Below, in pieces: positions 6,559-60,483 of a stretch of DNA of 64,000 bases; within the stretch, counting starts at the first letter, position 1; every line of letters begins with the position of its first letter. This DNA comes from an archaeon. GTDB lineage: Archaea; Nanobdellota; Nanobdellia; Woesearchaeales; JAADFO01. The DNA lies in contig JBDRHG010000022.1 of the NCBI GenBank assembly GCA_043817075.1, forward strand, positions 39,102-103,101. The letters are read 5' to 3'. The notes beneath the pieces were generated by a model that was given only the letters and a program-made list of their open reading frames with translations, was not told the DNA's origin and ran no database searches. The position numbers and the translations under genes are program-made.

Positions 6559-6571
6559 TTTTTTCTTTTTT
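6559..6571 (+). terminator. Oligo-T tract downstream of the 1336-aa gene (archaeal-type terminator candidate)
   Basis: TTTTTTCTTTTTT in the convergent intergenic region. An A9 run at about 6613-6625 provides the equivalent T-run for the minus-strand operon. Confidence 0.35.
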
Positions 6572-6631
6572 GATTCTTCATTTTCTCGGATAAGATTTTT
6601 AGAAAGGAACAACTAAAAAAAAATAGAAAAA

Positions 6632-8663: not shown

Positions 8664-8813
8664 GTCTATCGCCGTAGTCCTCTTGTTCTCGAAAAGAAGC
8701 TGATTAACGACGTGTTCGTTCTCGATAATCGCGTTGACTCTTTTTGCGGTCTCCTCGAATTCCTTGAACCATTCATCGACACCCCGTTCTTCTATCTCGG
8801 CGATCTGCCAATT

Positions 8814-9158: not shown

Positions 9159-9312
9159 TGGGATATTTATTAGTATCGGTAACCCACCAATAAATGAACG
9201 AAAAAAACAAATACTGCCCCGCCGACCTCCTTCATCAACCAGATGGTCGGGCGATCATGACCGGCCGATGATTTAATGATCAGCGGGACAGCGTGCAATC
9301 AGTCAAAACAGA

Positions 9313-9924: not shown

Positions 9925-10196
9925 AGTGATCGCCCCGTGTGTGTTTTGTCATACGTCTGAATGTCTGTCTCACCTAACCTCTCGCGAGTGACAGAAACCA
10001 TATAGTGAAAGAAATATAAGAAATGTTTTCCAGAATTTTACGGGAATTCGAAGAATAGGGCAAGAAATTTTCTAGATACATCTAAACCGATAAAAAAAGG
10101 TCCAATTATTAGCCACATGAAGAGAAAAACAGGGCATTTTTTTCCTAGAATTCAAAATACTTAAAATAGTTTACTATTTTCCGGAATACCGAAACA

Positions 10197-10204
10197 TTTA
10201 TATA
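10197..10204 (+). promoter_or_regulatory. TATA box (GAAACATTTATATA context) for the Lrp/AsnC gene; transcript probably leaderless
   Basis: TTTATATA is centred about 30 nt upstream of ATG 10230 and preceded by a purine-rich BRE-like GAAACA. Confidence 0.5.
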
Positions 10205-10229
10205 TTTCAACATCTTCACCCACCTCAAG

Positions 10230-11294
10230 ATGGAACCCGCAGGCCGCATCTCCGAGGAGCTTCGTATCAAGAACGTCAAGATCGACGTCAAGGACAAGAG
10301 GATCCTCGCTCTGCTCGCCGAGAACGCGCGCATACCACTCTCGCAGATCGCGAAGAAGGTTCAGCTTTCCCGAGACGCGATCGACTACCGCATCAAGCGG
10401 CTGCAGCGCGAAGGCGTCATCATCCGATTCTTCCCGGTCATCGACCTCAAGCGCTTCGGTTACTACATCTTCCACGTCTTCTTCCTCATCGACGAGATGA
10501 ACCGCGACAAGCAGGTGGAGCTCCTCGATTTCCTCAAGAACCACCCACATATCAGGAACATCATCGAGTACAGCGATCGGTGGGACCTGGAGATATCAAT
10601 CATCGCCCACGATATCGACGAATTCGACGAGATCTCACAAGGCATCACCCAGCGGTTCCCCCAGCTCATCTTAGAGAAAGAGAATATGCAAATCATCAAG
10701 GGATACCATTCCATCCATCTGCCCAAGAGCATCCAGCACGAGATCAACCATGTATCCCTGCCGCAGGAGGAGCGCTTCGCGCAGGTCCGCCTCGACGAGA
10801 TCGACCTCGCCATCCTCCGCGAATTGGCCAAGAACTGCCGCACCTCTCCCTTCGAGATCGCCAAGCTCGTCGATCTGACCGGCGACGCCATCAACTACCG
10901 CATCCGCCGCATGCTCGAATCCGGCGTGATCCGTTACTTCACCATCCTGACCAACCTCTCAGCGCTCGGATTCCATTGGTACACCTTCTCGATGCAGATG
11001 AAGACCTTCACCAGCGAATTCGACCGTAAGCTCAAGGAGTATGTCAGTCAACACCATTACATCATCCGAGCGGTCAAGACCCTCGGAGTGTGGGACCTCA
11101 TGCTCTATGTGGTGGCGGACTCGCCAAAGCATTTCCATTCCACGGTAAAAGAGCTCAAAGTCGTGTTCTCCGACGTCATCCGCAACCACCAGACCCTGTT
11201 GGGCTACATGGAACACCGGTTCGACCCGTTGCCTGCGGCCGTGGAAATCCCGAACCAGGAAAGACGACACAGAGCAGGCCCCCACGAGTTCTGA
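10230..11294 (+). CDS. Tandem (duplicated) Lrp/AsnC-family transcriptional regulator
   Basis: Two complete HTH_AsnC-like modules: KDKRILALLAENARIPLSQIAKKVQLSRDAIDYRIKRLQREGVI and LDEIDLAILRELAKNCRTSPFEIAKLVDLTGDAINYRIRRMLESGVI. Each is followed by a RAM-like segment. Confidence 0.85.
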   Translation: MEPAGRISEELRIKNVKIDVKDKRILALLAENARIPLSQIAKKVQLSRDAIDYRIKRLQREGVIIRFFPVIDLKRFGYYIFHVFFLIDEMNRDKQVELLDFLKNHPHIRNIIEYSDRWDLEISIIAHDIDEFDEISQGITQRFPQLILEKENMQIIKGYHSIHLPKSIQHEINHVSLPQEERFAQVRLDEIDLAILRELAKNCRTSPFEIAKLVDLTGDAINYRIRRMLESGVIRYFTILTNLSALGFHWYTFSMQMKTFTSEFDRKLKEYVSQHHYIIRAVKTLGVWDLMLYVVADSPKHFHSTVKELKVVFSDVIRNHQTLLGYMEHRFDPLPAAVEIPNQERRHRAGPHEF

Positions 11295-11316
11295 AACCTC
11301 CTCCTCGAGGGAAACA

Positions 11317-11324
11317 TTTAAATA
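11317..11324 (+). promoter_or_regulatory. TATA box (GAAACATTTAAATA) upstream of the 2045-aa gene
   Basis: It shares the GAAACATTTA context with position 10191. It lies about 60 nt upstream of GTG 11385, which is preceded by a GGTGGTGA Shine-Dalgarno-like sequence. Confidence 0.45.
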
Positions 11325-11384
11325 GTGACTTTCCGGGAAGCATACACTAGTCAGAGTGACCGTTCAAAAAGGTGGTGATGCCCT

Positions 11385-14300
11385 GTGAAGAGAGAATCCT
11401 CTGTCATCCTATTAGTAGTTATCATGCTCATTTCCGGCTGTCAGGCCGGCGATATCCCTCCGGAGCCCGGCGCAGTACAACAATCCCCAGTAGGCGAAGC
11501 CTTGCGTTATATCGCAGATGTCGATCCGCGCTACGGCCCGCCATTCGACATCTTCAACGGCGACAAGCAGTTCTTCTTCGCCGAGCCCGAAGTGTTGGAG
11601 TTCGACCTCGATGACCCGGCAAGCTGGCCGGACCTCGGCATAGAGGTAGAACAGGAAGGTCGGGCGATCTATCGCTTCGGCTACTATTTCTCAAAAGGCG
11701 AATGGCGTCAGTTCACCTTCCCTCAAGAGACGGTGAGGGGATCGAACTGGGTGCGGGATTCGGCCAAGACCACCATGCATGTCGACCCTGGACAGTTCGA
11801 CGAAGACGTTGCATATTTCGTGACCTATTCATGCATCAAGATCGACGGAGAGTGGAAATGCGGCTGCCGATCGCCGAATGATTGCGGTTACTGGACCCTT
11901 CAGACCGTCGATATCGAGAGGAACACCGCCGGGATGCCTGACCTCGTCGTGCAGAACGTTGGTATAGAGTCGTCAGATATCGTCGTCGGCCAGAAAATCA
12001 AGGTCATCGTCGACATCACCAACGATGGCGATGCCGAAGCGAAGGGACCTTTCGGCGTGCTCGTGCGCTCCGGACCCAACACCCATCGCATGGAATTCCC
12101 CTCTTTGTTACCCGGCCGCGTGGCGAGGTCAACGATGTATTTCTCATATGACACGCCTGGCGATTATGAGATCGTCGCCCATGCCGACGATACAGGCATC
12201 GTGCAGGAAGCAGAGGAAGGTAACAATATCCTCGGCCGCGCGATCACCGTAGGCACCGACCTGCCTGACGAACCCGCTTTCTGCGGCAACGATGTGTGCG
12301 AGGCAGGCGAAGGGTATTTCTGCATCGAGGAATGCACCGTCTGTGAAGAGCCCCGACCGCTCGGGACGGAGTATGCGCTGGTCGACAAAGATGGGCTGCT
12401 CCCCCATGGACTTGGATTCGCCGACCTCAACATCAGGAGCGTGACCTCCCAACATCTCGGATTCCTGAAGAGCAGCACCCTGAAGAACCAATTCGGCCAA
12501 TACACGCAGACGCAATACATCGAACTCGCGCCTGACACCCATTGGACATGGACAAAAGACCCTGACGATGGCTCGGATGAACCGGCTCCGTTCTTGGTGT
12601 TCAACCAGTACGAGAGCGCTTACAAGTGGCAAGCCGCTTTCACGCCGGCGATCAAATCCGGGCATTATGTGGATCGTCGCGACCTGCGTGACCTCGAGAA
12701 CAAACAGATCAGGATATTCGACAAGGATTACACCGTCATCCGCGCCAGCCATCCGGCTGAACAACACCTCTCGCTCACGTTGCTGGGAGGGGCTGTGCAG
12801 GACACACTGGAAGAATACGACGGCAAGACCTACACGGTCGATGGAAAAGAGCTTCCGGTCAAGATCGTGGCCATCCATGACGGAACAGTCAAATTCGACG
12901 CCGGCGGCGAGATCACCGATCCTCTGCTGCGAGGAGAGATATACCTTCTCGACAACGGCATCATGATCGGCGTCCGTGACGTCCTCCATGCCGAAGAGAT
13001 GGAAGAGGGCGGCAAAGACATCGCGACGTTCTACCTCGGCGCGGACAGGCTCGAACTGACCGATATGCGGACCCATGACGCCGGTGGCGGAACTAGCATC
13101 GTCAAACACAACGGAAATGAGCTCAGCCAGATGCTGGTCGACCTGATAGTCACTACAGAGATGGGCTTTGGAGAGGAGGATCATATCTATATCTCTGGGA
13201 TCACCATCGGCTATGTCCCGAGCCAGGAGCTCTATGTCCCGATTGATGAGGGACTGCTCGAGGTCGCTGAAGAGATCGAAGGCGAGGTCGGCAATGTTCT
13301 TGTAGAGGGATTCGACATCTTCTTCGACGGGATAGACTACCCTGCGGTCGAGGAGATCAAGCTCAAGCCGAGCGGTTCGAACAACTACAAGATCCAGTTC
13401 ACCAACAAAGCGGGTGTCGATTACGACACTGAGATCTTCGGATGGGACGGCGGCATGGTATTGCTCGGCAAGATGGCGGGGACTAGCTTTCGCGAGCTTG
13501 TGACAGACAAGACCGCTCCGGTAGCTGACGAGGACTTTGTGGTCATCGGTGACGGCAAAGACGACGGCTATGCCCGCATCCTGCAGTTCAAGAGTGTGCA
13601 GACCGCGGATGACATCTATCGCATCAAGGACGTCGGCACCGGCGAAGTGTACGATGTCTCATACGACAGCACCGGCACCGGGACATTGGTGGTCGACGGC
13701 TTCTCGACGACCATCACCGGTGATGGAGACGATGCGACGTGGATCTTTTTCTCCACAGCACAGCAACATGTCCCCACTAACTTCGGTGCGACCATACTAT
13801 TCTACAGCCAGGATACCATTGAAGTGCGCTCGAAGATGTTCAGAGGATACCAGGAGAATATCCGGGTCACGGTGATGTATGATCAGGCCCAAAACCAGCT
13901 CGAGATTGACATCCAATCCATCGACATCATGGGACGGCCAGTGTTCGACTACAAGGTCGGCGACGAGAGCAAGTACCGCGGCATCGTCGGGGCCTATGGC
14001 ATGGGATGGGAATACGATCAGGAGGAATTCGGCCAGGACAGCTTCATGTGGATCCAACCTAAATCGCCGCTCTCGGCGCAGGTATATGTGAAACAGAATA
14101 GGGCTCTCATACCCTGCGTATCCATCTGCCGTATGATATGCGAAGAGCAGTGTCCTGAGGACTGTAAGCAGACCAAGATAGAGTATGTAGAGAGTCTCGC
14201 GCGACCGGACATCGTTAGCCCCACCGAAGAGCAAGAGGTGCAGATCGAGGTCAGGGCGAGAGGCAATGCCGAAGGCATGGAAGGGTTGGATATCCCTATG

Positions 14301-41291: not shown

Positions 41292-41314
41292 GCCCTGTCC
41301 CTTGATTCAAGGCT

Positions 41315-41356
41315 ATTTAAACGTTTTGGCGGGCGACAATGGGGGAAAAATATATT
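41315..41356. promoter_or_regulatory. Divergent promoter pair (two TATA boxes) between the antiporter and galE; both transcripts probably leaderless
   Basis: Minus-strand AAACGTTTAAATAGCC has its TATA at 41315-41322, about 27 nt from ATG 41291. Plus-strand AAAAATATATTAA at about 41349-41356 is about 27 nt from ATG 41381. Confidence 0.5.
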
Positions 41357-45238: not shown

Positions 45239-45453
45239 TTTTCTTACTGCCTCCTCCGTTGGTAAACCTCGAATCCCTTAGATAGGTGCCTTCGTTAAAT
45301 CGAGAAAGAGAAAACGGTTTTTCAATAACAAAGCTACTAAACCTAACAATGATTTAACGACTACATTTCATTCCGTCCAAATTTTTACTTACTTTAAAAC
45401 GGACGAGAAAGGGGGCTGGTGCTACGCACATATTGCCTTTTACTTCGTAAAAG
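45239..45453 (+). repeat. Repeat arm A: four sequence blocks plus a CTTCG-loop hairpin, matched in inverted order-preserving fashion by arm B (50874..51003)
   Basis: The blocks are TTTTCTTACTGCC (45239-51), AGATAGGTGCC (45280-90), TTTTTACTTACTTTAAAA (45382-99) and GGACGAGAAAGGGGGCTG (45401-18). The hairpin is CTTTTA-CTTCG-TAAAAG (45437-53). Confidence 0.7.
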
Positions 45454-45469: not shown

Positions 45470-46441
45470 TTAAAAGTATGAACCTAAACTCTGTTGATTT
45501 TTATCTTGTTCTTTTTTCCTACTTTTTTTACCTTTCTGACTATTTTGAATGTAGTCTCGATATTCGGCAGAAGTCATGCTTTCTATCTTGGATATTTTTT
45601 TCTGAATTTTATCGTATCTTATTGATGGTCTGAATTTTAAAGTGTCATCTGATAATTCACCTACTTCTGGAAAAATTCTCAGTGCACATCGAACCAGAGA
45701 CTTCATTTTATTGTCTGATAAAACGCTGTCATTTTGTTGTCTTTGGATAAAATCAGCCATTAGTGATTCCCTATTAAGAAGCTGCACTTGGTGTGATAGA
45801 AGCCTTTTCGTAATCTCTGCCACCAAAACGTTTTCTGGCGATTCAGGTGAGTTAAATAAAACTGTCTTGATCGGCTTGGCAAGGAAACCATCTTGGCTCA
45901 TTTTTGTTTCCAGATCTTGATCATGTGTGTGGTTTCCATAAACTTTCTTTATTTTATGATTCCCATCTTGGTCTGGTTCTGATACTACCCATACAACAAT
46001 GTTTGTTTCATAGCCTTCTTCTTGTTGCACTTCTTCAATTATTGATATTATTTTTTCAATTTCTTCTTGTTTGTCAAAACATACAACCAGAATCTCGTTA
46101 TCATGATCATCATTTATGAATACTTCTTTGAATCTATCGTTTTTGCCGTAAAAAAGTAGTTGTTCTTTGAATCTATCATCTGATTCATCTATATACGATT
46201 TGCATTCTACAGTAATGCTTTTTTTCTTTATTGAGTTGTTCAAGAATCCATCGCTTGGTCGGAAGTTATCTCCAAATATTGTTTCAAATTCTTCTCTGAA
46301 CTTTTTTATGTCGAAGTTATATCCATAGTCCCTTTTGAGGAGGCCATTCTCTGCTACTGGTGACTCTGTTGTAGATACAGATAATGCAAGATTTGCGATG
46401 AGATTCGCAAGAACATCATGAGGACGCATCGATTTGACCAT
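45470..46441 (-). CDS. Hypothetical protein (~323 aa), last gene of the six-gene operon
   Basis: The ORF is open from GTG 46453, and ATG 46441 is preferred. It overlaps the upstream gene's end. The C-terminus is Lys-rich and I recognised no domain. Confidence 0.65.
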   Translation of the reverse strand: MVKSMRPHDVLANLIANLALSVSTTESPVAENGLLKRDYGYNFDIKKFREEFETIFGDNFRPSDGFLNNSIKKKSITVECKSYIDESDDRFKEQLLFYGKNDRFKEVFINDDHDNEILVVCFDKQEEIEKIISIIEEVQQEEGYETNIVVWVVSEPDQDGNHKIKKVYGNHTHDQDLETKMSQDGFLAKPIKTVLFNSPESPENVLVAEITKRLLSHQVQLLNRESLMADFIQRQQNDSVLSDNKMKSLVRCALRIFPEVGELSDDTLKFRPSIRYDKIQKKISKIESMTSAEYRDYIQNSQKGKKSRKKEQDKNQQSLGSYF

Positions 46442-47552
46442 AATGTTCACCAATATTTATTGAAGGATCTACTCTTGATTGTAAAGCAGAGAGTATTTTT
46501 GACATGGCTTCATGTTCTGGCGGTTCGCCAAGAGTTGGAGCTATAGTGATTTGTTTTTTATCTGTGGATATGTAGTATTTGTTTCCTGTTTCCATATCCA
46601 TGACTTCTGTGATAAAATAAGTGTCATCTTCATCTTTCTCAAAAAGCATTATTTTGAATTCTGATAAATATCCTATATTCAGCATTTTCATAAGATTGTC
46701 AAACCAGTTTTCGTAAAATGCGGTTGACATATCCAATCGAATAACTTGAAGATTGTCAAGGGTGACGGTGTGAATGTCAATATTGCTTCTTTGTTCCACC
46801 TTGATTTGGTAATTCAAGCGGCTGGATAATATGTTTTTCAAGTGTTCGGAGTAATCAAGAATTCCTTTTCCGACTTCAATAAAATCAAGTATTGAGCCTG
46901 AATATAAAGCAAATTCTCCTCTATCAGACAACGATAGTTTGCTTCCAAGACCTCCATTTCGAGATACTTTGTATTTTCCTCTTTTAACATAGCACAGTTC
47001 TTCAAATTTTCCGTAGTGAAACCTTCTGACTTCTGATATATCTTCCTTCTTTCGTGGAATCCAGTTTCTACTGCTACCTTTTCTTTTTTTGGAACTTACA
47101 TCTCTATATTCAATGGTAAACTCAAGAAGCTCTGATTTTGAATCTGCATAGTAGTTTTTTACAAATTGGTTGAAGTTCTCAAGAAACTTTGATCCGAGCC
47201 AAGGCTTCCAAAGGGCTCTAATACTATACAAAAGTCTGTTAAACTGTTCATATTCTGGATGGTCTGCATAAGTGAATATAGCGTATTTGTTATTTCTTTC
47301 AAACTCCTTAATGAAAAAATATGTTTCCTCCTGATTATCGTTCCTTCTGAGAATTATGACTGTAAAATCATCTTCAGGAGTTTTTGCAAGGTCTGCTTGC
47401 CAGGTTTCCGAATAAGAATTGTAATTTAGGACTGCACTTTGAAAGACATTATCAATTTGCTGGAGATTGAGAACAAAGTAACCTCTGATAGTCTTCTTTT
47501 TCTCTCTATGGTCCTGTAGGAATTGATTGAAACTGAGTGTTGACTTAACCAT
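46416..47552 (-). CDS. Hypothetical protein (378 aa), fifth gene of the operon
   Basis: The start lies 3 nt after the stop of the DUF262-HNH gene. I found no recognisable domain, NTPase motif or TM segment. Confidence 0.7.
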   Translation of the reverse strand: MVKSTLSFNQFLQDHREKKKTIRGYFVLNLQQIDNVFQSAVLNYNSYSETWQADLAKTPEDDFTVIILRRNDNQEETYFFIKEFERNNKYAIFTYADHPEYEQFNRLLYSIRALWKPWLGSKFLENFNQFVKNYYADSKSELLEFTIEYRDVSSKKRKGSSRNWIPRKKEDISEVRRFHYGKFEELCYVKRGKYKVSRNGGLGSKLSLSDRGEFALYSGSILDFIEVGKGILDYSEHLKNILSSRLNYQIKVEQRSNIDIHTVTLDNLQVIRLDMSTAFYENWFDNLMKMLNIGYLSEFKIMLFEKDEDDTYFITEVMDMETGNKYYISTDKKQITIAPTLGEPPEHEAMSKILSALQSRVDPSINIGEHYGQIDASS

Positions 47553-47554
47553 CT

Positions 47555-48649
47555 TTATCCTTTCTTAGATTTTTCTCTATGGTCATCCCTACATAACATT
47601 TGACAATTTTCATCAATAGATTTTCCGCCTTCACTCCAAAGTTTGATATGGTCAGCTTCCATTTCTTCTATTTTGAAATGTTTTTTACATTTAGGACATA
47701 TACCTTTTTGTCTTTCGTATGCCTTCCTTTTTTGCTTATCATTAAAAGTTCGAATATTAAGATATTTTTCATCTCTTATCAAAACATATGGGTAAATACC
47801 TTTCTGATTCGTAACGTCTTCATCTTGCATTAATTCAGAGATTTCTTTTTCTAGTTTTTTAGTATCATATTTTTTGCTTCTGAATTTATTATACAACTCT
47901 CCCCAATTAACTCCTTTCATTTCTCGTCTATAATTTGGAAAAGTATTTCTTACCCATTCTATTACTTTCTGAAAATATCCCCATAACTCGTTTGCATTTT
48001 TATCGTGTTGGTGTTTAGACATATATTCCTCTATCTTCCCGTTATTAATCCACAACAAAACTGTTTCTAGAAATTCTTGTCTGATTGGCGAACCAGTTAC
48101 TAATTGCCCTCCGTCACTCGCTAAAAGATATGCTGCACAATTAGTTTTACTAAATTTTAACTTAGCATCTGAAAGCCATGTTCCCGTGTATACTGAATTT
48201 CGAAGCTCTTGTTCAGTTAGTTTTTCTCCAGAGATATTTACAATTCTGAACCAATTTAATTTTTCTCTTTCATTTCCTTCACAAAAATAGATCATCAACT
48301 CATAATTTAATATTTGATTTTGTTCATCTCCTGTCAAACTATGGAAGTATTTCTCGTTTATTGAAAAATCTCCTGCAACATACTGAGCAATACTAATTGT
48401 TCTTTGCTGTCCATCCAAAACCTCAAAATTTCCGTCAGGTTTTTTTACCCAATACATAATATTTAGTGGAAAATCTTTTCTCACAGTTTCAATCACTTCA
48501 TTTCTCTGCTTCTCTTTATAGATAAACTCCCTCTGGTATTTTGGACGAATATCTAATTTTCCACCATATGCAGTAACTCCTTCTTCTGCACTGTCTTTAT
48601 ACTCTTTTACTACTTCTCTTATTGGGATTTTATGTAGTTCTATCTTCAT
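47555..48649 (-). CDS. DUF262 (ParB-like/GmrS-type) domain fused to a C-terminal HNH endonuclease
   Basis: IRPKYQREFIY and LDGQQRTISI are the DUF262 signature motifs. The C-terminal CPKCKKHF...ADHIKLWSEGGKSIDENCQMLCRDDHREKS is a canonical HNH (C-x2-C ... H-x ... N ... C-x2-x-H). There is a 4-nt overlap with the methyltransferase gene. Confidence 0.85.
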   Translation of the reverse strand: MKIELHKIPIREVVKEYKDSAEEGVTAYGGKLDIRPKYQREFIYKEKQRNEVIETVRKDFPLNIMYWVKKPDGNFEVLDGQQRTISIAQYVAGDFSINEKYFHSLTGDEQNQILNYELMIYFCEGNEREKLNWFRIVNISGEKLTEQELRNSVYTGTWLSDAKLKFSKTNCAAYLLASDGGQLVTGSPIRQEFLETVLLWINNGKIEEYMSKHQHDKNANELWGYFQKVIEWVRNTFPNYRREMKGVNWGELYNKFRSKKYDTKKLEKEISELMQDEDVTNQKGIYPYVLIRDEKYLNIRTFNDKQKRKAYERQKGICPKCKKHFKIEEMEADHIKLWSEGGKSIDENCQMLCRDDHREKSKKG

Positions 48650-49725
48650 TTTGGGCTTTTTAGTTTAATTAGAATACGACCATAGAGTCGTTTTCCATTT
48701 AAATAACCTCGGTCAATTTTTCCTTTCCATTTTGGTTTAATCAGTTTAGGCAATAAACCCTCCTTTACGCTATAATCACAACCTAAAATCTCAAATTGTT
48801 TTGGATTATATTTATTCAGAAATGTGATTGGAACTCCCATAACACCACCATAATCTCTTGGAATTTCGTAAAATCTTGATACTTCGATAGCTTTGTAATT
48901 GTCATATTCAGGATATTCTTTTGGTGAGTATTTTTTATACAAATCAAGTTCTTCATAGCGTTTTGGGGTGTCCAAATTTGTAAACCATAAAATACGTCCC
49001 ATGCTAAAATATTTTTTACCTCCCACAATTTTTTTTCTTGACTCTGTTGGTATATCATAATCCATAGGGACTTGAAACCATTTGGTACCCCCATTATCGT
49101 AACCAAACCATAATTTGTTATCTTTGACTAAACTGAAAATCTCTTTGTAGGTAGTAGCATTTTGATCTCCTAGAATCAAAAATTTCTTACCATATTTTAC
49201 AAGCTGTAAAACATATTCACGAAATAGAGAAAATGGCGGATTAGTGACAACTATGTCAGCTTCCTTGAGTAGCTCTATACATTCATTGCTACGAAAATCA
49301 CCATTGCCCTTAAGATGTGAGGACGTATTAGCATCATGCTTTAGTAACCACTCAACATCTGTGAGATCTATGGCCCCATCAGCATTAGCATCAGGAACTT
49401 CAGATATTTCAATTTTAAAAGGGGTTTTACCTTGAGGTTTTAATCCAGCTACTTCAAATAACTTCAGCTGACCCCCAGCAATCATAGATTTATCATAGGT
49501 TGTGGTGATTATCTTTTTGAGTTTCAAAGAGTTAAAGTTTGCGGCAAAATACTTGAAAAAGTTACTTTCGAATGGATCATCGCAATTGCAATATACAATT
49601 TTTCCTTTAAATTGTTCTTTATAATACTTTAACTCCTTCTCAATATCAACAAGCTGAGTATAAAACTCGTCATTCTTCGCCTTATTTGCTCTTTGCAAAT
49701 TTTTATTTAATGACTTAGTTGCCAT
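48646..49725 (-). CDS. N6-adenine DNA methyltransferase (EcoRI-methylase-like family by recollection)
   Basis: IVVTNPPFSLFREY contains the NPPF catalytic motif IV. The N-terminal KNDEFYTQLVDIEKELKYYKEQFKGKIVYCNCDDP resembles the EcoRI_methylase family signature. Confidence 0.85.
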   Translation of the reverse strand: MATKSLNKNLQRANKAKNDEFYTQLVDIEKELKYYKEQFKGKIVYCNCDDPFESNFFKYFAANFNSLKLKKIITTTYDKSMIAGGQLKLFEVAGLKPQGKTPFKIEISEVPDANADGAIDLTDVEWLLKHDANTSSHLKGNGDFRSNECIELLKEADIVVTNPPFSLFREYVLQLVKYGKKFLILGDQNATTYKEIFSLVKDNKLWFGYDNGGTKWFQVPMDYDIPTESRKKIVGGKKYFSMGRILWFTNLDTPKRYEELDLYKKYSPKEYPEYDNYKAIEVSRFYEIPRDYGGVMGVPITFLNKYNPKQFEILGCDYSVKEGLLPKLIKPKWKGKIDRGYLNGKRLYGRILIKLKSPK

Positions 49726-49727
49726 AA

Positions 49728-49874
49728 TTAAACACTACCTTTCTCCATTTTTAATTGTGCTTCCATCATTATTTCTACTTGACGAGAAACTAATAACCCT
49801 TTCTTCTTGCAAAGCTCTCTATATTTGTCATAAAGTTCAGAATTTACTCTTAATGTGATATTTTTTGATTCCAT
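49728..49874 (-). CDS. Ribbon-helix-helix (CopG/Arc-like) protein, 48 aa, not in the ORF track (below its size cutoff)
   Basis: Hand translation gives MESKNITLRVNSELYDKYRELCKKKGLLVSRQVEIMMEAQLKMEKGSV, with a beta-strand ITLRV followed by two helices. The stop lies 2 nt before the methyltransferase ATG. Confidence 0.6.
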   Translation of the reverse strand: MESKNITLRVNSELYDKYRELCKKKGLLVSRQVEIMMEAQLKMEKGSV

Positions 49875-49882
49875 TTTAACCT

Positions 49883-50797
49883 TTATTTATTTTTTTCATA
49901 ACTTTGTTTTATTAGCGATAGTAAAACAGGCAATTCTTCAGAATTTGAAAATGAAACTTCATAATCTCCATTCCCCCAATGACCTACATTTGAAACATCT
50001 CGTGTAATTGAATCAATATCTTTAAGTTGTCCCTTAGACAGATTAAGCCAAAATTTTATTTTATTCTTTTGTGGCAAGAGATCTACAAAATTTCTATCTG
50101 CTTTAAACGCAATGTATTTCTTTTTTGAGATTACTTCAATATTTTCATCAATAGATAAAATCTGATTTTTTAATTCGTCATATAATGATTTAATTTCTTC
50201 TGAACAATGGCTTAAATGGTCTTCTTCAGTGTAAACTTTTACTTCACTGCTTACTTTCTCAACAACATCGCTTTTTTTACTAATCTTGTTTATTGATTCA
50301 GAATTCTCATGGGACCTTAATCTTGTATATTGGATTAAATCATTTTCATATCTTGATATTTCCCACAATTCAATCGGCAAATCCTTAAAATTAATCGCTT
50401 GTTGTTGATATTTTGAAAATGCAGGAGAAACAAATAAAACTCTTGATTGCGACCAATCAACATTATCTCGTTTTATAGTCTTATCACAATTCTCATTATA
50501 CTCTAAAATAAATTCTGCCTTATTATTAAGCATTAAAGAAAGATAAGCATATCCTTGATCTATAACACTAAAATTCTTATCCCTCTTATATTCTATTATT
50601 ACAAAACTATTATTTTCATTATCATATGCGAGAGTATCTATTCTTAACCCATTCAAAGAGAATTCTGATTTAACTATCTGTAACCCAAAAATATCGCTTA
50701 AATTCTTCTCTGTCAAATCCTGAATTTCTTTCTCTAACTTAAAAGATAATTGTTTTATTCTACTAAGATTATTTGATGAATTCTTGAATATTGACAT
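49883..50797 (-). CDS. RecB-like PD-(D/E)xK nuclease-fold protein (HSDR_N-like N-terminus) with DUF5655-like C-terminus; first gene of the operon
   Basis: The motif series is LRIDTLAYD ... VIIEYKRD ... DQGYAY (D, ExK, QxxxY). The C-terminal YIAFKADRNFVDLLPQKNKIKFWLNL...VGHWGNGDYEV resembles DUF5655. Confidence 0.7.
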   Translation of the reverse strand: MSIFKNSSNNLSRIKQLSFKLEKEIQDLTEKNLSDIFGLQIVKSEFSLNGLRIDTLAYDNENNSFVIIEYKRDKNFSVIDQGYAYLSLMLNNKAEFILEYNENCDKTIKRDNVDWSQSRVLFVSPAFSKYQQQAINFKDLPIELWEISRYENDLIQYTRLRSHENSESINKISKKSDVVEKVSSEVKVYTEEDHLSHCSEEIKSLYDELKNQILSIDENIEVISKKKYIAFKADRNFVDLLPQKNKIKFWLNLSKGQLKDIDSITRDVSNVGHWGNGDYEVSFSNSEELPVLLSLIKQSYEKNK

Positions 50798-50823: not shown

Positions 50824-50831
50824 TATATAAA
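50824..50831 (-). promoter_or_regulatory. TATA box for the six-gene operon (minus strand AACATTTATATATA)
   Basis: It is centred about 30 nt upstream of ATG 50797 and has the same AACATTTATATA context as host promoters. Confidence 0.45.
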
Positions 50832-50873: not shown

Positions 50874-51003
50874 CAGCTCCCTCTCTCGTCCTAACGGACA
50901 TATTGTCTGCTACGCAGTAATTGATTTTAAAGTAAGTAAAAACTACGGCACCTATCTGATTCTTCGGTAGTAAGAAAACTCTGCGGATTTACTTCGTAAA
51001 TCC
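50874..51003 (-). repeat. Repeat arm B: reverse complement carries the same four blocks as arm A in the same order, plus a CTTCG-loop hairpin in direct orientation
   Basis: The reverse complement reads TTTTCTTACTACC ... AGATAGGTGCC ... TTTTTACTTACTTTAAAA ... GGACGAGAGAGGGAGCTG, giving block matches of 12/13, 11/11, 18/18 and 16/18. The hairpin is GGATTTA-CTTCG-TAAATCC at 50985-51003. Confidence 0.7.
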
Positions 51004-51083: not shown

Positions 51084-51380
51084 TTAGAAAAATGTTAGTT
51101 TTAGTAATATAGTTGCAACTACAAAAAATGATACTTTGAATTTCCATCCGTTAATTTTTATCTTAAAGTATTTTGTTTCAAGATTGTTCCCTGTGAATCT
51201 AATAATTATGGCTTGTGCTATGGCTGTCGTAGCAAAGGCTAAAACAAGACTTGTTGCCAAATCTGTTATTAAAGGCCAATATTGTTTCAGATCAAACCTA
51301 TCCAAAACTAAAAAAACGGCCACTAAAGAAATTAGTATTAAACCAGCTTTTTCATTAAATTCACGTTCTGGATCTTTCAT
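51084..51380 (-). CDS. Small membrane protein (98 aa, ~3 TM helices)
   Basis: Hydrophobic segments LILISLVAVFLVL, LVLAFATTAIAQAIII and FFVVATILLKLTFF. I recognised no domain. Confidence 0.5.
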   Translation of the reverse strand: MKDPEREFNEKAGLILISLVAVFLVLDRFDLKQYWPLITDLATSLVLAFATTAIAQAIIIRFTGNNLETKYFKIKINGWKFKVSFFVVATILLKLTFF

Positions 51381-51493
51381 GCCAATAAGTAATTCAAGAC
51401 TTCTATTTATAAATTCCGAAACATGAATCGCGAATTCAGATAGCTCACACGTTCAAAACGTTTATATACATTAGTTACTTCGCGATAAGGTAG

Positions 51494-52357
51494 ATGGTAC
51501 AAATTCGTATAACTGAAGATTTTGAAGAAGTTGCTGAACAAGAAGAAAAGCTGTCTATTTCAGATATGAAGAAGAAAGAAAAGTTTTCTCATTTAACTTT
51601 TCATGGTAACCCCAAAAGACTCATATCTTTTATTAAAAATGAATTAGATAATAATGGCTATCAAGTAAAATATGATGGTCTTAGTGGTCTGGATGGGGGC
51701 ACAATGAATGATATTAAAGATGTATCCCTAAGAGTGTATGCTGAAAAAAGAAGTGATATTAAGGGAAAAATTGATTTACGTATTCCGAGAAGTCTAATCT
51801 TTTTAACAGGTATTGGATCTTTATTATTTATTTTTTCAGTCCTTTTTTTTAAAGCAAATTGGAGTGGACTCGGAGCAACATCCATGGTTATTTCATTGAC
51901 ATTAATGGCTGGCGGGATATTCTTAATTATTAAAGGTCCAAAACAAAAAATGTTTTCTTATCATCCATCATCTCATATTTTATGGCTGGTTGGAGAAGGA
52001 GAAGCTTTTTTTGGAACCAAAACGCAAGAATCTAAAAGCGGACATGATCTAAAATCAGGTAGTGTTAGTGCAATAAAGACATCTTACCTTACTAGTGATA
52101 TGGATGTTTATATTGCCGCATCTGCTAAGAGTTTGGATACTCTTTATAGAGAAAAGTTATTGAGAGATAAAGAGAAACCAAATCCTTCTTTCTGGGACTT
52201 AATTAAGGGGACAAAAAACAATATTAAAGAGATTAGCATGGAGAATGAAGAGGAATATATTAGCCTACCAAAAGACAAAGACGAACATAAAAAACATATC
52301 TCTCGTGAGATGGAAGATATATCAAAAAAAATGGGTAAGTTTATGGGTATAGATTAG
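51494..52357 (+). CDS. Hypothetical membrane protein (287 aa, two central TM helices)
   Basis: AAACGTTTATATAC has its TATA at 51461-51468, about 30 nt upstream of the ATG. The TM helices are LIFLTGIGSLLFIFSVLFF and MVISLTLMAGGIFLII. I recognised no domain. Confidence 0.6.
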   Translation: MVQIRITEDFEEVAEQEEKLSISDMKKKEKFSHLTFHGNPKRLISFIKNELDNNGYQVKYDGLSGLDGGTMNDIKDVSLRVYAEKRSDIKGKIDLRIPRSLIFLTGIGSLLFIFSVLFFKANWSGLGATSMVISLTLMAGGIFLIIKGPKQKMFSYHPSSHILWLVGEGEAFFGTKTQESKSGHDLKSGSVSAIKTSYLTSDMDVYIAASAKSLDTLYREKLLRDKEKPNPSFWDLIKGTKNNIKEISMENEEEYISLPKDKDEHKKHISREMEDISKKMGKFMGID

Positions 52358-53577: not shown

Positions 53578-54225
53578 TTATTCGTCATGTTCGTTGGCAT
53601 AATATCTGCCATTATCATCTCTGGAAATTTCTCCGACCTGCTCAAGCTGCTTAAGAAGCTTATTCGCTCGCGGTTGTGATAATGCTAAAGCATCACACAC
53701 ATCCTTTTCAAGAACACCCTCAGGGGATGACTTGACCAATTCAATGACTTTCGCTTGGGTTGGACCCATATCTGAATGGCTTACTGGTACATCGGGCTTA
53801 GAATTTAAGGAGACTAAATCCTGCCAGGGCATTTTAAGCAGAACCGAGAGTTGAGAATCAGTTATGTTAGCAAACCGTTGCCCTATGAGGTATTTCTTTG
53901 CCGAGATAAGCTCGATCATCATTTCCCTCATTTTGTTCTGAAAGGATTCCAGGTCCTGAGCTTTGTCCTTCTGCAGATTCACAATCTGGTCCTGGAGGGA
54001 TTGGGAGTCTCCACTATTATGATGTTCAAGGACTTTCTTTAGCTGACCGTTCTGTTCGTATAACTCCTTGAAGGACTCTATGAATTTTTCGCTTCTCACG
54101 ATTTCCGGGAGGTTTCTGAGCCTTTCGCATTCCTCTCGCAGATAGTTGCGACCAGAGTCAGGATCTCTCAGCGATACCGGATTGTGCCTCTGAAAAAAGG
54201 AGTCAGGTTGAGGTTGCCCGATCAT
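53578..54225 (-). CDS. Coiled-coil protein with C-terminal winged-helix domain
   Basis: The preferred start is ATG 54225 (TAATG overlap with the upstream stop, AGGGAGGA Shine-Dalgarno-like sequence). The C-terminus reads TQAKVIELVKSSPEGVLEKDVCDALALSQPRANKLLKQLEQVGEISRDDNGRYY. Confidence 0.7.
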   Translation of the reverse strand: MIGQPQPDSFFQRHNPVSLRDPDSGRNYLREECERLRNLPEIVRSEKFIESFKELYEQNGQLKKVLEHHNSGDSQSLQDQIVNLQKDKAQDLESFQNKMREMMIELISAKKYLIGQRFANITDSQLSVLLKMPWQDLVSLNSKPDVPVSHSDMGPTQAKVIELVKSSPEGVLEKDVCDALALSQPRANKLLKQLEQVGEISRDDNGRYYANEHDE

Positions 54226-54422
54226 TAAGAGTCCTCCCTTGCACAAACAACATAGCCATCTAGGAAGGCGTAGAGGCTTTTGTCTAGACAGAAGATTACC
54301 GGGCGTTCAGACACCTTTTTCGCCAGTCTGAACAAGTCTTCCTTGCTCTGAAGTTCAATTAATGTTAATACTTCAGGCAAGAAAATGTGCTTTGCTTGAA
54401 TAGGTTTAATCAGGCCGTTCAT
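54225..54422 (-). CDS. Small hypothetical protein (65 aa) coupled to the polymerase gene
   Basis: There is a 4-nt overlap with the end of the polymerase ORF. I recognised no domain. Confidence 0.5.
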   Translation of the reverse strand: MNGLIKPIQAKHIFLPEVLTLIELQSKEDLFRLAKKVSERPVIFCLDKSLYAFLDGYVVCAREDS

Positions 54423-56674
54423 TTGCCCTCCAACTTTTTCAGTCGTTCAATGATCTTCTCACTGAGTTTTGGCACAGCGTCCTCTCCCAGCCGTTTCCTG
54501 ATCTCGAACTCTGTTTGGCGGCTTATACCTGCTGCTCGGAGTTCAGGAGAAGAAGCCTTCCGGAACTTCGAAACCAACTTTGAGATATTCACGACTTCTT
54601 GTGGTGCTTCACCTTCAAGGATTTGGAGGTCCACGTTCTTGACCTGTTTCCCGATATACCGAAAGCCATCAACAGTCAGATGTCTCCTTTTCATCCAACC
54701 CTCCTCTGACCCGTTCTCGTACTTGTCTTCAGGATGGTTGAGGAAGCGAATGAATGTGTCTTCCAATGTGGCCCAGTACTGAGAACCTTGCAGCACTTCT
54801 CCGGTCTCGTAATTGATAAACGGCTTATGCACAACACTTCGAGGGTCCTTACAGAAGGGGGCGATAGGCTTGACCATTCGACCGTCTTTGAGACTGGAAG
54901 GTTGGCCTACAATGAAGAAATTAAATGGTTTCACCTGCTTGCAGAAAGGTCTGCCTTCGTTCATTTTTGAGAACCGATCCAATACATTCATGGACGTGAT
55001 GCTGAGCTTGCTCAACGCAGGTAGACCTCTGTACCGCTCAAGCACGGAAGGAGGATCAGCGAGTCCAAGTGATACGGAGACGATGTCGTGCCAGAACTTC
55101 TTCATCCATGCATCGCCTTTTCCGCCAAAAGGATTCATCAAATAGCCAAGGCCGTGAGCCTTCCACCATCCATCAACAATTTCTATGCCTTTCTTGGTTT
55201 GTTCAAAGAGGCAGTACCGCTTTGCTGAGATCCCGAAAAACCATTTTTTCCGGATCTCGACCTCTAGAAAGGGAGCATTCTTCCCGAGAGGGCTTAGTGG
55301 CTGAAAGAACTTGACAAGTTCATCTTCATAGCCTACAGGGCAAAAAATCGAATCGGTATCGTTGTAGATTGGTCTTGTTCCTATCTGCTTTAACTTTGCC
55401 TCACCCAAACACAAGAGAAGCCGACCTCCGGCAGCGATGGATGAACCGATCCAAGGGGCAAAGTAGGGTCCTGGCTCCTCATACTCCATCTCTGCTTCAA
55501 ACTGCTCATTACTATAAACACTGACGTTCTCCAGTGACTCCTGAGGGTTGAGTTCTATTGAGATGCCGTAAAGGGAGCTGGCTACGGTTTTAAGCATCTT
55601 AGCATACATTCGTTCCCTTGATTCTTCCGGATATTTCTTGAGTTCAGCACGCCGATTCAGAAGCTTAAGTGCGATATCATCCTTAGAAGGGTTGAGTTCC
55701 ATTCCCAATACTTTTACAGTTTTCAGGTCTTGCTGGCCTACGGCCTCAAACCGGAAAGCTTTTGTGATCTTCGGCGTTCTTCCGGTGAGCAACTTTGAAG
55801 CTATAAGGTCTGGCAATGAATAATTCGCTTTGGACTTCATCCTTACGTGGGAAAGGGAGAGCTTTGGGAGCCTGCCAGAACCGCAGAGGGCATTAACTGG
55901 TAAGAGGTATTCTCCAGGAGGCATCTCGCAAGTCACCGCTAGACGCGGCCAGAGCGACTTATCCTGCAAGCTTTCAATCGTTACATGATCCAGTAAGCGT
56001 TGAACTTCTTCAGTACAGTCCTTTACTAAAATTTTCTCTGCAAAGAGAAGGCTTTGGAGTTTTAAAAGAAAGAAGAGTGAGATGTACATACCATTGAAGT
56101 CAAGGACAGAAATCTCAATGGGCTGCTTTCGAATGAAAAGCTGGCATAACCCTCCATAATAGGTTGAAAAGACCTTTCCTGCCGGACCCAGAAGATTATT
56201 CTCAATAGGCCAAGATGACCTTAAACCCATCTTGCGAAGGATATATTTTACGATGGTTGCCGTGGAGTATATCTTTCCAAGTTCCAGATCGCCCAGCCCT
56301 AACTTTGCATATTCATTTTTCAGGGAATGATACAATTCTGCCGTTGCAGACACATCAGCTAGGTTGTACTCAATGAGTTTAGGTGATATTTTAAAGTCGT
56401 TATTATCAGTCTGTTTGAAATGAGTCGTATTCAGTATTTTGCTCGCTTGATCCAAAGTTATATGACGCTTTTGAAGCAGAACCGCAGTCGCAGCCTTCAA
56501 ATCGATGATCTTGCCCGTAGAAAACTCCTTGCGCCCTCTTGGCCGTGGGTAAGTGAAGGAGATGAACGACGAGATTCGATCTCTTGGGATGATACGAATT
56601 CGTGGGAAGTCATTTGATGAAAGGAACTGCAAAGAGAACCCTTTAGACTTATTTCCTTGCTTTCTTCGTATCAT
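54419..56674 (-). CDS. polB: Family-B DNA polymerase, main part (Exo III plus all polymerase motifs)
   Basis: Exo III is EYNLADVSATAELY. Motif A is VLDFNGMYISL, motif B is KMLKTVASSLYGIS and motif C is IYNDTDSIF. The KxY motif is SAKRYC. Confidence 0.9.
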   Translation of the reverse strand: MIRRKQGNKSKGFSLQFLSSNDFPRIRIIPRDRISSFISFTYPRPRGRKEFSTGKIIDLKAATAVLLQKRHITLDQASKILNTTHFKQTDNNDFKISPKLIEYNLADVSATAELYHSLKNEYAKLGLGDLELGKIYSTATIVKYILRKMGLRSSWPIENNLLGPAGKVFSTYYGGLCQLFIRKQPIEISVLDFNGMYISLFFLLKLQSLLFAEKILVKDCTEEVQRLLDHVTIESLQDKSLWPRLAVTCEMPPGEYLLPVNALCGSGRLPKLSLSHVRMKSKANYSLPDLIASKLLTGRTPKITKAFRFEAVGQQDLKTVKVLGMELNPSKDDIALKLLNRRAELKKYPEESRERMYAKMLKTVASSLYGISIELNPQESLENVSVYSNEQFEAEMEYEEPGPYFAPWIGSSIAAGGRLLLCLGEAKLKQIGTRPIYNDTDSIFCPVGYEDELVKFFQPLSPLGKNAPFLEVEIRKKWFFGISAKRYCLFEQTKKGIEIVDGWWKAHGLGYLMNPFGGKGDAWMKKFWHDIVSVSLGLADPPSVLERYRGLPALSKLSITSMNVLDRFSKMNEGRPFCKQVKPFNFFIVGQPSSLKDGRMVKPIAPFCKDPRSVVHKPFINYETGEVLQGSQYWATLEDTFIRFLNHPEDKYENGSEEGWMKRRHLTVDGFRYIGKQVKNVDLQILEGEAPQEVVNISKLVSKFRKASSPELRAAGISRQTEFEIRKRLGEDAVPKLSEKIIERLKKLEGK

Positions 56675-58418: not shown

Positions 58419-58491
58419 GATTTGATTGGTAATATGGCAAAGTTTATATATAGCTATAATTCTCATCTAATCAGAAATAGAGGAATTCATC

Positions 58492-59340
58492 ATGGCATAC
58501 TATACTGGAAATCCCTACAAATTAAAGGATTGGGAAACGGAACCTTTATCGATGTTTCAGGATATTGATGGAAGATATCTATTTTGTCATTTTTTTCATC
58601 AACCAACGAGCCTTCAGATGTTAATGAAGAATTCAGAGAAGTACAAACCGAACAATACTAAAGCGTACAGACTTTATAATCTCTTTAAAAAATTTGGTTA
58701 TATTAAAAAAACGAAAACTACCGTTTCAAGTTATGAGAGAAAACAAGACAATAAACTAATCCCCACAAGAGACTTTGGGTATCTGGGAACAACTCAACCG
58801 TTTTATGATTACTTAAGATCTCTACATCTGCGGGATGATTTTAATATAATAGAAGAGTTAGTTGAAGAACTGTTTTCACATCCTGAGATGCGATTGTTTC
58901 TATTAGATTCATATGCATACCATATTGAAGATAAACGCTTCGAACTGTTTACTATTTTTTCCAGTCTTGATTTGCTACAAAGCTTTCGAGATATTATGAG
59001 TGTATTTTACTATTTTGATCAACATCCAAAAGTCCTACGGCAGTTGCTTTCACTGCACAACACGAAATGTAAATCTTATAACTGTTTGAAAGAACGTATC
59101 AATTCTGTGCGTGAAAAAAGAGAGCTAAGAAAAAAAATGCATGATATGAACGTGTTCCCTTACTTCATATTAGCATCCTATTTTCAGCATCTATTGAATC
59201 TTGTTCGAGAAGACATCAACTTTGAAAAGTGTTTATCAGATCTTTATGCTACCACAACATCAAATTATCACCACATGCAATATTTGAACGAATTAGAACG
59301 AAGCAAGTCTCTTAAGAATATGCGTGTTCAAAGAAAATGA
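58492..59340 (+). CDS. Hypothetical protein (282 aa) in a very AT-rich patch, convergent with cas1
   Basis: Long ORF whose 3' end overlaps the 3' end of cas1 by 48 nt. I recognised no domain. Confidence 0.6.
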   Translation: MAYYTGNPYKLKDWETEPLSMFQDIDGRYLFCHFFHQPTSLQMLMKNSEKYKPNNTKAYRLYNLFKKFGYIKKTKTTVSSYERKQDNKLIPTRDFGYLGTTQPFYDYLRSLHLRDDFNIIEELVEELFSHPEMRLFLLDSYAYHIEDKRFELFTIFSSLDLLQSFRDIMSVFYYFDQHPKVLRQLLSLHNTKCKSYNCLKERINSVREKRELRKKMHDMNVFPYFILASYFQHLLNLVREDINFEKCLSDLYATTTSNYHHMQYLNELERSKSLKNMRVQRK

Positions 59341-60483
59341 TTCGTTTCCTTCGGCGTTTTTTTTCATGTAGTGCAGTGATCCCCGGGAGTATCCTCTTTT
59401 TTCCCATTCGCTGTAGCTGATGGCTAGGATCTTTTTTCTTATGGCTTCGGTGTCTTGACGATCAAGTACTGGGCGGGGTTTGGTGAGGTCTAGCGTTTTT
59501 CGTTTGCCGTTGAGGTGGTGTGCGAGTTCTGTGGTTTTGTTGAGGATGAGGGCTTTCCAGCTGCATGTTTTTCCTTTGTAGGTGGTCTTTTTTCCTAGCT
59601 GGCGGTTGAACTCCCGGATGGCTTTTTTTGCTCCGCTTGGTCGAAGCTTGAGGGTGTAGGTTTCGGTTCTGATGAAGTCTTTGGGCTGCATTGTTCCTTG
59701 TTCTGTGAGTGCGAGGACTGCGAGGTCTGTGAGGAAGCGGAATGGTTCCTGGAGGTCGTATGCGAGGCTGTTCTTTCCCGGGGCGGTTTTGTGGAGGAAT
59801 CCTACGTGCGGGTCTAGCCCTGCGGTGTTGATGGCTCGCAGGACTTCTGCTTCAAGAATCGAGTAAAGGTAGTTGAGAAGGGTGTTTGTGGGGTCTCCGG
59901 ACCCCCAGGGCTTTCGGCGGTAGCCTCTGGACATAAATCCGGCCTTTTCTGGAAGGATTTTTGCGATCTGGCTCCAGTAGTGCTGTGCTGCTACTGCTTC
60001 GACTCTGAGGATTTCTGGGGCGTTTCTTGCGGCCTGGAGGCCTTTTGCTTCTGTTGGTAGGTTTTCTTCGACTTGTGGGTATCGTTCTTTGAGCCAGGAG
60101 AGCATGTCTGTGGTGCGGCAGAACTTTGCCTCAATAAACTTCTTAGCAAGAAAAAGCCTCTGTGAGTCGTCTTCTGAGGCCTTGTACTGGCAGAATTTTG
60201 TCTGTACAGCGACGCTTCCCGGCGGGAGCATGGTGGTGAGGAGCTTTCCGTTCCAGTCGAGCAGGGTGACTTGTGTTCCGTGCTTGATAAGCCACCGTGC
60301 AGCGTCTAGCGTGAAGCTTCCTGAACGCCCGTAGATTACCAGATTATCTATGCCTATCCTTTTAGGCCTGAACGTCCACTCGTGGGGTGTTCCTTCTCCG
60401 GTTTGTCCGTCACGGATTTTTAGCCGTGCAGCGTCAACCCATACCTTGATGCCGTGCCCGTTGAGGACAAGTATGCGATCCAT
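59293..60483 (-). CDS. cas1: Cas1 family integrase without CRISPR context (casposase-like), with C-terminal HTH tail
   Basis: Cas1 core motifs are present: LRVEAVAAQHYW, DPTNTLLNYLYSILEAEV, GLDPHVGFLHKTAPGKNSLAYDLQEPFRFLTD. The N-terminal beta domain is MDRILVLNGHGIKVWVD. The C-terminal ISYSEWEKRGYSRGSLHYMKKNA is HTH-like. Confidence 0.92.
   Translation of the reverse strand: MDRILVLNGHGIKVWVDAARLKIRDGQTGEGTPHEWTFRPKRIGIDNLVIYGRSGSFTLDAARWLIKHGTQVTLLDWNGKLLTTMLPPGSVAVQTKFCQYKASEDDSQRLFLAKKFIEAKFCRTTDMLSWLKERYPQVEENLPTEAKGLQAARNAPEILRVEAVAAQHYWSQIAKILPEKAGFMSRGYRRKPWGSGDPTNTLLNYLYSILEAEVLRAINTAGLDPHVGFLHKTAPGKNSLAYDLQEPFRFLTDLAVLALTEQGTMQPKDFIRTETYTLKLRPSGAKKAIREFNRQLGKKTTYKGKTCSWKALILNKTTELAHHLNGKRKTLDLTKPRPVLDRQDTEAIRKKILAISYSEWEKRGYSRGSLHYMKKNAEGNESFSLNTHILKRLASF

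Follow-up and report, generated by a model that had tools for sequence, protein, structure and literature searches.

Six genes packed closely together on the minus strand occupy positions 45470-50797 of a 64,000-nucleotide stretch of a Woesearchaeales genome (contig JBDRHG010000022.1 of assembly GCA_043817075.1; the whole stretch is 'the window' below, and positions are counted from its first letter). In order of transcription, with lengths in amino acids (aa), the open reading frames (ORFs) are g1 (49883-50797; 304 aa), with an N-terminal PD-(D/E)xK and a C-terminal DUF5655 domain; g2 (49728-49874; 48 aa), encoding a ribbon-helix-helix (RHH) protein; g3 (48646-49725; 359 aa), an EcoRI-family N6-adenine DNA methyltransferase (MTase); g4 (47555-48649; 364 aa), which combines DUF262, with its DGQQR motif, and an HNH nuclease; g5 (46416-47552; 378 aa), the partner of g6; and g6 itself (45470-46441), of 323 aa from the ATG at 46441 or 327 aa from an upstream TTG. 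On the coding strand the junctions are +8 nt for g1/g2, +2 for g2/g3, -4 (ATGA) for g3/g4, +2 for g4/g5 and, counted from the g6 ATG at 46441, -26 for g5/g6. A prediction made earlier from the sequence alone (the original prediction) had listed these six minus-strand ORFs, the 48-aa one included, with gaps of 2-8 nt or overlaps, and that layout stands.

The original prediction also placed a single TATA box before the first gene, and this too is borne out. The TATA-box-like TTTATATA at 50824-50831 on the minus strand, 27 nt before the g1 ATG and a candidate promoter, is the sole minus-strand match to TTTAWATA in the operon region (45.4-50.9 kb). Across the window there are 9 matches to this consensus versus approximately 2 expected from shuffling, and strict boxes are found 23-42 nt before same-strand ORF starts at 41314-41321 (-), 51461-51468 (+) and 58443-58450 (+) as well as at 50824-50831 (-), a spacing that suggests archaeal near-leaderless transcription. 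The six genes form one tightly coupled unit, probably with a single promoter, which we infer from TTTATATA. Per-gene GC content is 0.27-0.35, versus 0.565 in the host flank, and the block is, as had been claimed, the most AT-rich stretch of a low-GC island. GC content at third codon positions (GC3) climbs stepwise, from 0.20 in g1 through 0.24-0.26 in g2-g4 to 0.29-0.32 in g5-g6, and such a progression fits separate origins for the parts.

The operon is made of three separable modules, g1, g2-g3-g4 and g5-g6, each of which occurs apart from the others elsewhere. Exact protein look-up and a metagenome scan yielded 34 loci with g5 relatives, and these were queried by tblastn with the six window proteins: a g6 relative is directly downstream of g5 in every locus with sequence there, and relatives of g1, g2, g3 and g4 are found in none of the 34. 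From the other direction, four examined loci in which an MTase gene is followed by a restriction gene (M-R loci L035, L037, L038 and L039, dealt with below) have no g1, g5 or g6. The six-gene set as a whole was found at no other locus examined. The original prediction had envisaged one system with 'obligately co-transcribed unknowns', to be recognized by co-occurrence of the six families in other genomes, and had itself counted a neighborhood conserved nowhere else as evidence of random juxtaposition. For the six-gene set such a lack of conservation is what is seen, and the occurrence of the modules without each other argues that this is not one six-gene system.

Scanning the six proteins against PADLOC-DB v2 revealed no hallmark of BREX, DISARM, Dnd/Ssp, Gabija, Septu, Zorya or other modelled systems, in agreement with what had been surmised for the first four of these. 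The significant matches are to PDC-S18, MTase_II and REase_II, together with DUF262-domain similarities of g4 (NsnA, 2.1e-24; PD-T4-2_A, 3.2e-10); the PtuB and MkoA models match g4 marginally (E ~0.01). The designation of the set as an undescribed defense system consequently survives in part: g5-g6 is undescribed, but g1 has an existing PADLOC entry, candidate PDC-S18, and the full length of g4 fits a type II restriction endonuclease (REase) profile derived from REBASE.

The third module, g5-g6, is an undescribed pair of genes that is conserved as a unit and is found time and again with restriction-modification (R-M) or MTase genes. It is extremely rare. A word-seeded search of 5.8 billion proteins gave two homologues of g5 and three of g6, and searching 1.84 billion cluster representatives exhaustively with a profile gave 17 clusters for g5, whose relatives constitute 18 lineages at 90% identity. 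In all loci the two genes overlap or are no more than 41 nt apart, and the pairwise identities of the two proteins co-vary (Pearson 0.97). By hhalign g5 and g6 are unrelated to one another. The host is archaeal wherever neighbors or labels identify it. No match was obtained by tblastn with g5 against plasmids and phages or with g6 against plasmids, nor any relative with the g5 family alignment against viral contigs, and in the scan of a genome collection the sole relative was that of a Nanoarchaeota metagenome-assembled genome (MAG), the L007 locus.

Three lineages are nearest to the window, at 47-100% identity, and all of them have g5-g6 as the two final genes of an operon that includes an MTase gene. 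One is the window itself. In another, L001 (a Logan metagenome contig, positions 1119-12086), the partners are hsdR-hsdM-hsdS, a 123-aa ORF and a Cas4-like PD-(D/E)xK gene, with a DUF262 protein gene upstream. There the pair ends a nine-gene co-oriented block on which a RadC gene converges; the DUF262 protein is PDC-M55C-like, with the 123-aa and Cas4-like genes counting as additional hitch-hikers on R-M, both uncharacterised. In L007 (JAHISS010000129, positions 905-12135), the partners are a β-class (N6_N4-family) type II MTase and an RHH protein, on an element bearing a type IV secretion system (T4SS). Next to the MTase-RHH-g5-g6 set of L007 are genes for TraC-like, TrbC-pilin and T4SS proteins and for another N6_N4 MTase, a setting that suggests that a DPANN archaeon here carries a conjugative or integrative element. 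Pairwise, the g2 RHH protein is unrelated to that of L007 and g1 is unrelated to the Cas4-like protein of L001, so the accessory genes beside g5-g6 in different loci are not homologous.

Overall, R-M or MTase genes are within five genes of the pair in 5 of the 18 lineages, namely those of the window, L001, L007, L020/L022 (type I) and L024/L028 (type I). In distant lineages (approximately 25% identity) with enough flanking sequence, the pair is usually alone, with an upstream gap of some 30-340 nt, mostly above 120, and the neighbors are unrelated and often on the opposite strand. Among 77 neighboring proteins scanned with Pfam and PADLOC, no mobile-element families were listed. That the two genes might be specificity or helper subunits of an R-M system, as had also been contemplated, was rejected, given the occurrence of the pair without R-M.

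Of the two proteins, g6 is the more informative. The window sequence gave nothing usable with Pfam, NCBIfam, PADLOC or PHROGs, and searches of PDB with sequences and profiles, from shallow and deep alignments, returned noise only. In an alignment of 16 family members, however, extending down to 23% identity, D64, E79-C80-K81-S82, Q94 and F97 are invariant. D64, E79 and K81, with 14 residues between the first two (D-x14-ECK), have the right order and spacing for a PD-(D/E)xK triad, and the core is followed by a RecB/Cas4-like Q-x-x-x-(Y/F) helix motif. HsdR proteins of the fetched loci bear a very similar 'D...IECK' signature; with hmmsearch a profile of the g6 N-terminus gave no cross-family match in any of the fetched loci. 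When the members were scanned singly against Pfam, HSDR_N_2 was matched by 11 of 16 (best E 0.0022), VRR_NUC by 8 and BsuBI_PstI_RE by 2, all of them PD-(D/E)xK families. The g6 product is accordingly a predicted PD-(D/E)xK endonuclease, the call being made from sequence motifs. With HsdR N-terminal, VRR-NUC and RecB/Cas4-type domains it shares the D...(E)xK core and the Q-x-x-F-(Y/F) helix motif; it differs in that the distant clade does not conserve its first acidic residue, E26.

The AlphaFold2 (AF2) model of g6, built from a 4-sequence alignment, has an overall pLDDT (the model's own per-residue confidence score) of 61, and solely its C-terminal winged helix is usable. Residues ~200-300 are winged-helix-like, with pLDDT of 76-92 per 10-residue block apart from one block of 63, and with Foldseek match the C-terminal winged helix of Cdt1 (probability 1.0; root-mean-square deviation 2.1 Å over 89 columns), as well as MarR, SarX and MecI-type domains. 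A basic tail follows. No described counterpart was found for this winged-helix fusion with its obligate 380-aa partner. The original prediction had recognized no known domain in either of the two unknowns; for g6 this has to be amended by the nuclease signature D-x14-ECK...QxxF(Y/F) and the C-terminal winged helix, and for g5, which matches nothing, it holds.

The g5 family has its own conserved motifs, WxxWLGSxFLENF, SLSDR, IDxExG and VDPSI. Pfam, NCBIfam, PADLOC and PHROGs gave nothing, a Pfam scan of each family member likewise gave nothing, and against PDB neither sequences nor profiles, from shallow and deep alignments alike, produced anything above noise. Foldseek proposed RnlA N-terminal domains (probability 0.97, TM-score ~0.2); coming from an untrustworthy model, this was kept as a lead only.

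The central module, g2-g3-g4, is a widespread, ordinary type II R-M cassette. The g3 protein matches Pfam PF13651 EcoRI_methylase at 6.3e-135 and PADLOC MTase_II (PDLC03297) at 3.2e-124, and its S-adenosylmethionine-dependent catalytic motif NPPF can be read directly in 'VVTNPPFSLF', in accord with its initial designation as an NPPF N6-adenine MTase. Residues 1-363 of the 364 of g4 match PADLOC REase_II (PDLC03418) at 1.6e-133, and the initial description of g4 as a DUF262 (DGQQR) plus HNH protein is upheld by Pfam, which identifies GmrSD_N/DUF262 together with HNH PF01844 (9.5e-11). Consideration of g4 as a GmrSD type IV enzyme was abandoned: its C-terminal domain is a canonical HNH (PF01844) and not DUF1524/GmrSD_C, it is coupled to an MTase, and it has half the usual length.

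The g4 family is very large (at least 8000 proteins at E < 1e-20). An overlapping EcoRI-family MTase gene precedes the g4 relative in all four of the unrelated contigs examined, L035, L037, L038 and L039 (a Joint Genome Institute (JGI) metagenome, a Woesearchaeota MAG, a Desulfobacteraceae MAG and a Roizmanbacteria genome), with varied flanks, and an annotated M-R pair recurs on bacterial plasmids, both genes being under the match. Cassettes of an EcoRI-family (PF13651) MTase with a DUF262-HNH protein, M then R with a 4-nt overlap of the g4 start with the g3 stop (ATGA) as here, are thus common to archaea, Candidate Phyla Radiation (CPR) bacteria, Desulfobacteraceae and many bacterial plasmids. 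What distinguishes the present case from the same type II cassettes is that a 48-aa RHH gene leads, as it does again only in L037, and that the operon is longer, with g1 and g5-g6. A side aspect is the degree of conservation: g4 keeps 75-88% identity between archaea, CPR bacteria and Desulfobacteraceae, and g3 just 56-59% in the same four loci. Usually MTases are better conserved than REases, and here the order is reversed.

The small leading gene, g2, is probably the transcriptional controller of the cassette. Its profile matches (Arc-like, RelB, RepB-regulator) are all weak but consistently RHH, and a 48-aa ORF with 78% identity to it is in the same slot before M-R in the Woesearchaeota locus L037; no g2 relative is in the other three M-R loci, L035, L038 and L039. 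Classical controller (C) proteins are Xre-type helix-turn-helix (HTH) proteins with C-box operators. In comparison, g2 has the right position, directly upstream of R-M, but is RHH-like and not HTH, and its profile matches are weak. The counterpart of g1's slot in L037 (positions 1-4949; Woesearchaeota JACPMR010000004) is also pertinent. Upstream of RHH-M-R it contains genes for a 622-aa GmrSD type IV enzyme and two tyrosine integrases, and with these in the slot the 5′ flank of the cassette appears to be a hot spot for other defense genes.

The gene that heads the operon, g1, matches PADLOC PDC-S18 (PDLC04945) at E 9.2e-133, its residues 1-300 aligning with positions 1-301 of the 302 in the profile. 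With Pfam the C-terminal DUF5655 is found at 1e-17 and, N-terminally, NucS_C and HSDR_N_2 weakly; the N-terminal PD-(D/E)xK-type motifs are readable as RID, EYK and QGYAY, so that the initial call of a PD-(D/E)xK plus DUF5655-like protein was apt. A homologue with 46% identity, from the Acinetobacter plasmid pRBH2-4, is flanked by hsdS on one side and hsdR on the other, both of a type I system. The PDC families were predicted through 'guilt-by-embedding' of genes in R-M operons (bioRxiv 10.1101/2024.01.29.577857), and a g1 homologue inside a type I operon is the same embedding situation that yielded those candidates. Like the Acinetobacter homologue, g1, a full-length match to the PDC-S18 model, lies within or directly against an R-M operon and is co-oriented with it; the difference is that g1 heads a type II operon in an archaeon whereas the Acinetobacter gene is within a type I operon.

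The wider setting of the operon was described in the original prediction as an AT-rich mobile island carrying it as cargo. Consistent with that, the same low-GC island encodes, 4-10 kb from the operon, Cas1 (59293-60483, minus strand; PF01867, 2.5e-57) and PolB, a family B DNA polymerase (54419-56674, minus strand; DNA_pol_B_2, 4.7e-6). It also encodes a MarR-like protein (53578-54246, minus strand). Casposons are self-synthesising transposons with Cas1 and PolB (PMC4046053, PMC4779613), and with both genes present the island is casposon-like, with the defense operon as its cargo. It shares with casposons Cas1, PolB, HTH proteins and an archaeal genome; it differs in that the window yielded neither terminal inverted repeats nor a target-site duplication. 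In the interval 43.8-64 kb no long inverted repeat is convincing, and the far end of the island is probably beyond window position 64000. Nothing in the window matches Rfam and there are no tRNAs, and hence no tRNA attachment site there.

The operon had been thought to be bracketed by its own inverted repeats. This holds for one perfect 18-mer, with its left copy at 45382-45399, 71 nt downstream of the g6 stop, and its right copy at 50925-50942, 128 nt upstream of the g1 ATG (two matches were reached in 0 of 100 shuffles). Otherwise there are just four weak collinear blocks (45239-45248/50969-50978, 45280-45290/50947-50957, 45401-45418/50874-50891 and 45457-45466/50803-50812). The 18-mer does not recur in the rest of the window or in any fetched locus; its copies could stem from one palindromic element that an insertion has divided in two, or could mark the cassette ends. 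Just upstream of the operon are two ORFs with long hydrophobic, membrane-spanning-looking stretches, one of 98 aa (51084-51380, minus strand) and one of 287 aa (51494-52357, plus strand) that is preceded by a TATA box of its own and is without a match in Pfam.

On balance we regard it as fairly probable that three independently mobile defense-type modules have been fused into one transcription unit on a casposon-like, AT-rich archaeal island. In the central module g3 would protect host DNA by m6A methylation, the g4 HNH enzyme would cut unmethylated incoming DNA, and the g2 RHH protein would probably set the timing of R-M expression. The g1 protein would be a stand-alone PDC-S18 hitch-hiker, of the type whose genes insert into or beside R-M operons. 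Probably g5-g6 encodes a DNA-cutting enzyme and its partner. The effector would be g6, a PD-(D/E)xK endonuclease tethered to DNA by its winged helix and basic tail, and g5 would be an obligate partner that holds g6 back or directs it, most likely in the capacity of a sensor, a regulator or a specificity subunit, the two presumably forming a complex. Association with R-M or MTase genes, together with the conserved motif, suggests a role in defense, and the pair would provide an additional, type IV-like or abortive, form of nuclease-based immunity that is expressed and transferred together with the R-M. It most likely acts independently of the neighboring methylase, because the three associated methylases are unrelated and in most lineages there is none nearby.

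Several observations weigh against this reading and temper it. For the proteins themselves, every Pfam match of g6 is below curated thresholds, comparing the g6 family with HsdR N-terminal domains by hhalign gave no match, AF2 left the nuclease region of g6 (residues 16-87) unmodelled, with pLDDT below 50 for the N-terminus, and the g5 model, at pLDDT 44, is not interpretable. For the neighborhoods, most distant lineages of g5-g6 are beside archaeal housekeeping genes, those for TBP, eIF-6, ribosomal protein S19e, the proteasome, tRNA synthetases and an archaeal ThrRS editing domain being among their neighbors, and the enrichment in defense islands is modest, a rough binomial p of ~0.03 with an assumed, unmeasured, background of 10% for R-M/MTase genes within five genes. 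The position of g5-g6 at the 3′ end of an MTase operon in the three closest lineages makes a functional link to methylation possible. As for g1, the PDC families, 145 in number, are described as untested candidates in the work that defined them (bioRxiv 10.1101/2024.01.29.577857).

It is that 3′ position that keeps alive the main rival, in which g5-g6 is tied to the adjacent R-M, either as a guard or back-up nuclease released when restriction is blocked or as a second restriction activity that is self-protected by the neighboring methylase. The L007 operon, consisting of just MTase-RHH-g5-g6 with no other nuclease, also speaks for it, and there is a precedent in PrrC of the EcoprrI operon, which the R-M keeps inactive until a virus blocks restriction and thereby sets it free (bioRxiv 10.1101/2024.01.29.577857). 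Like PrrC, g1 and g5-g6 are extra predicted nuclease genes co-oriented, and probably co-transcribed, with a complete R-M, and in L001 too g5-g6 comes after hsdRMS. Unlike PrrC, neither g5-g6 nor g1 has an ABC-ATPase, an anticodon-nuclease domain or sequence similarity to it, and g5-g6 is appended at the 3′ end, not placed between hsd genes, and is mostly without any R-M. Since the three MTases (EcoRI-like, type I HsdM/S and N6_N4) are unrelated, a shared specificity or interaction surface is unlikely, and most distant lineages lack a nearby MTase; overall we consider an R-M-tied role unlikely. A bolder variant on the side of immunity, that g5-g6 would be an archaeal two-component immune system in which g5, as a sensor of novel fold, controls the winged-helix-tethered nuclease g6, with the pair attached to the 3′ end of R-M operons, serving as a PrrC-like guard or back-up once restriction is evaded or inhibited, and spread by casposons and conjugative elements, is put forward tentatively, as a possibility that we would hold below even chances by a good way. 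The view that all six genes are one integrated, undescribed defense system with interdependent components has in its favor the very tight coupling, the single TATA box and the low GC common to all. It is very improbable given the occurrence of each module without the others and of the whole set nowhere else, the full-length fit of g1 and g4 to existing PADLOC models, and the stepwise rise in GC3.

Two further proposals take g5-g6 out of immunity altogether. It could be an addiction or maintenance module of mobile elements, a nuclease toxin with a large antitoxin and no antiviral role, as its being a strict two-gene unit with overlapping genes, its patchy distribution, and the casposon-like island here and T4SS element in L007 would allow. 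Both proteins, however, are far larger than those of typical type II toxin-antitoxin (TA) pairs, it is the putative toxin, g6, and not its partner that has the DNA-binding domain, and most of the distant copies are amid housekeeping genes, with no mobile-element families listed for the 77 neighbors scanned; we judge it improbable. The other proposal is that the pair, as a structure-specific nuclease and its accessory protein, serves DNA repair or recombination in a restricted set of lineages, and that its proximity to R-M is coincidental. Many copies are amid housekeeping genes, and architectures combining PD-(D/E)xK with a winged helix are also known in repair enzymes, which counts for it. 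Extreme sparsity (the 17 clusters in 1.84e9 representatives), varying genomic position and recurrence in R-M/MTase operons and on mobile elements make it the least probable of the explanations considered.

Returning to the preferred reading of three fused modules, the locus carries a caution for genome scanning, in that tight operon packing does not define a defense 'system': here three separable modules are under what is probably one promoter. It also serves as an example of a casposon-like element with stacked defense cargo. Newness is limited to g5-g6, strictly paired, extremely rare, and consisting of a predicted nuclease effector plus a partner without a match in any known family. Should the pair not be defensive, the locus would be an ordinary type II R-M plus hitch-hikers. 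Few archaeal immune systems have been characterised so far, and g5-g6, if validated, would add a new protein family to them.

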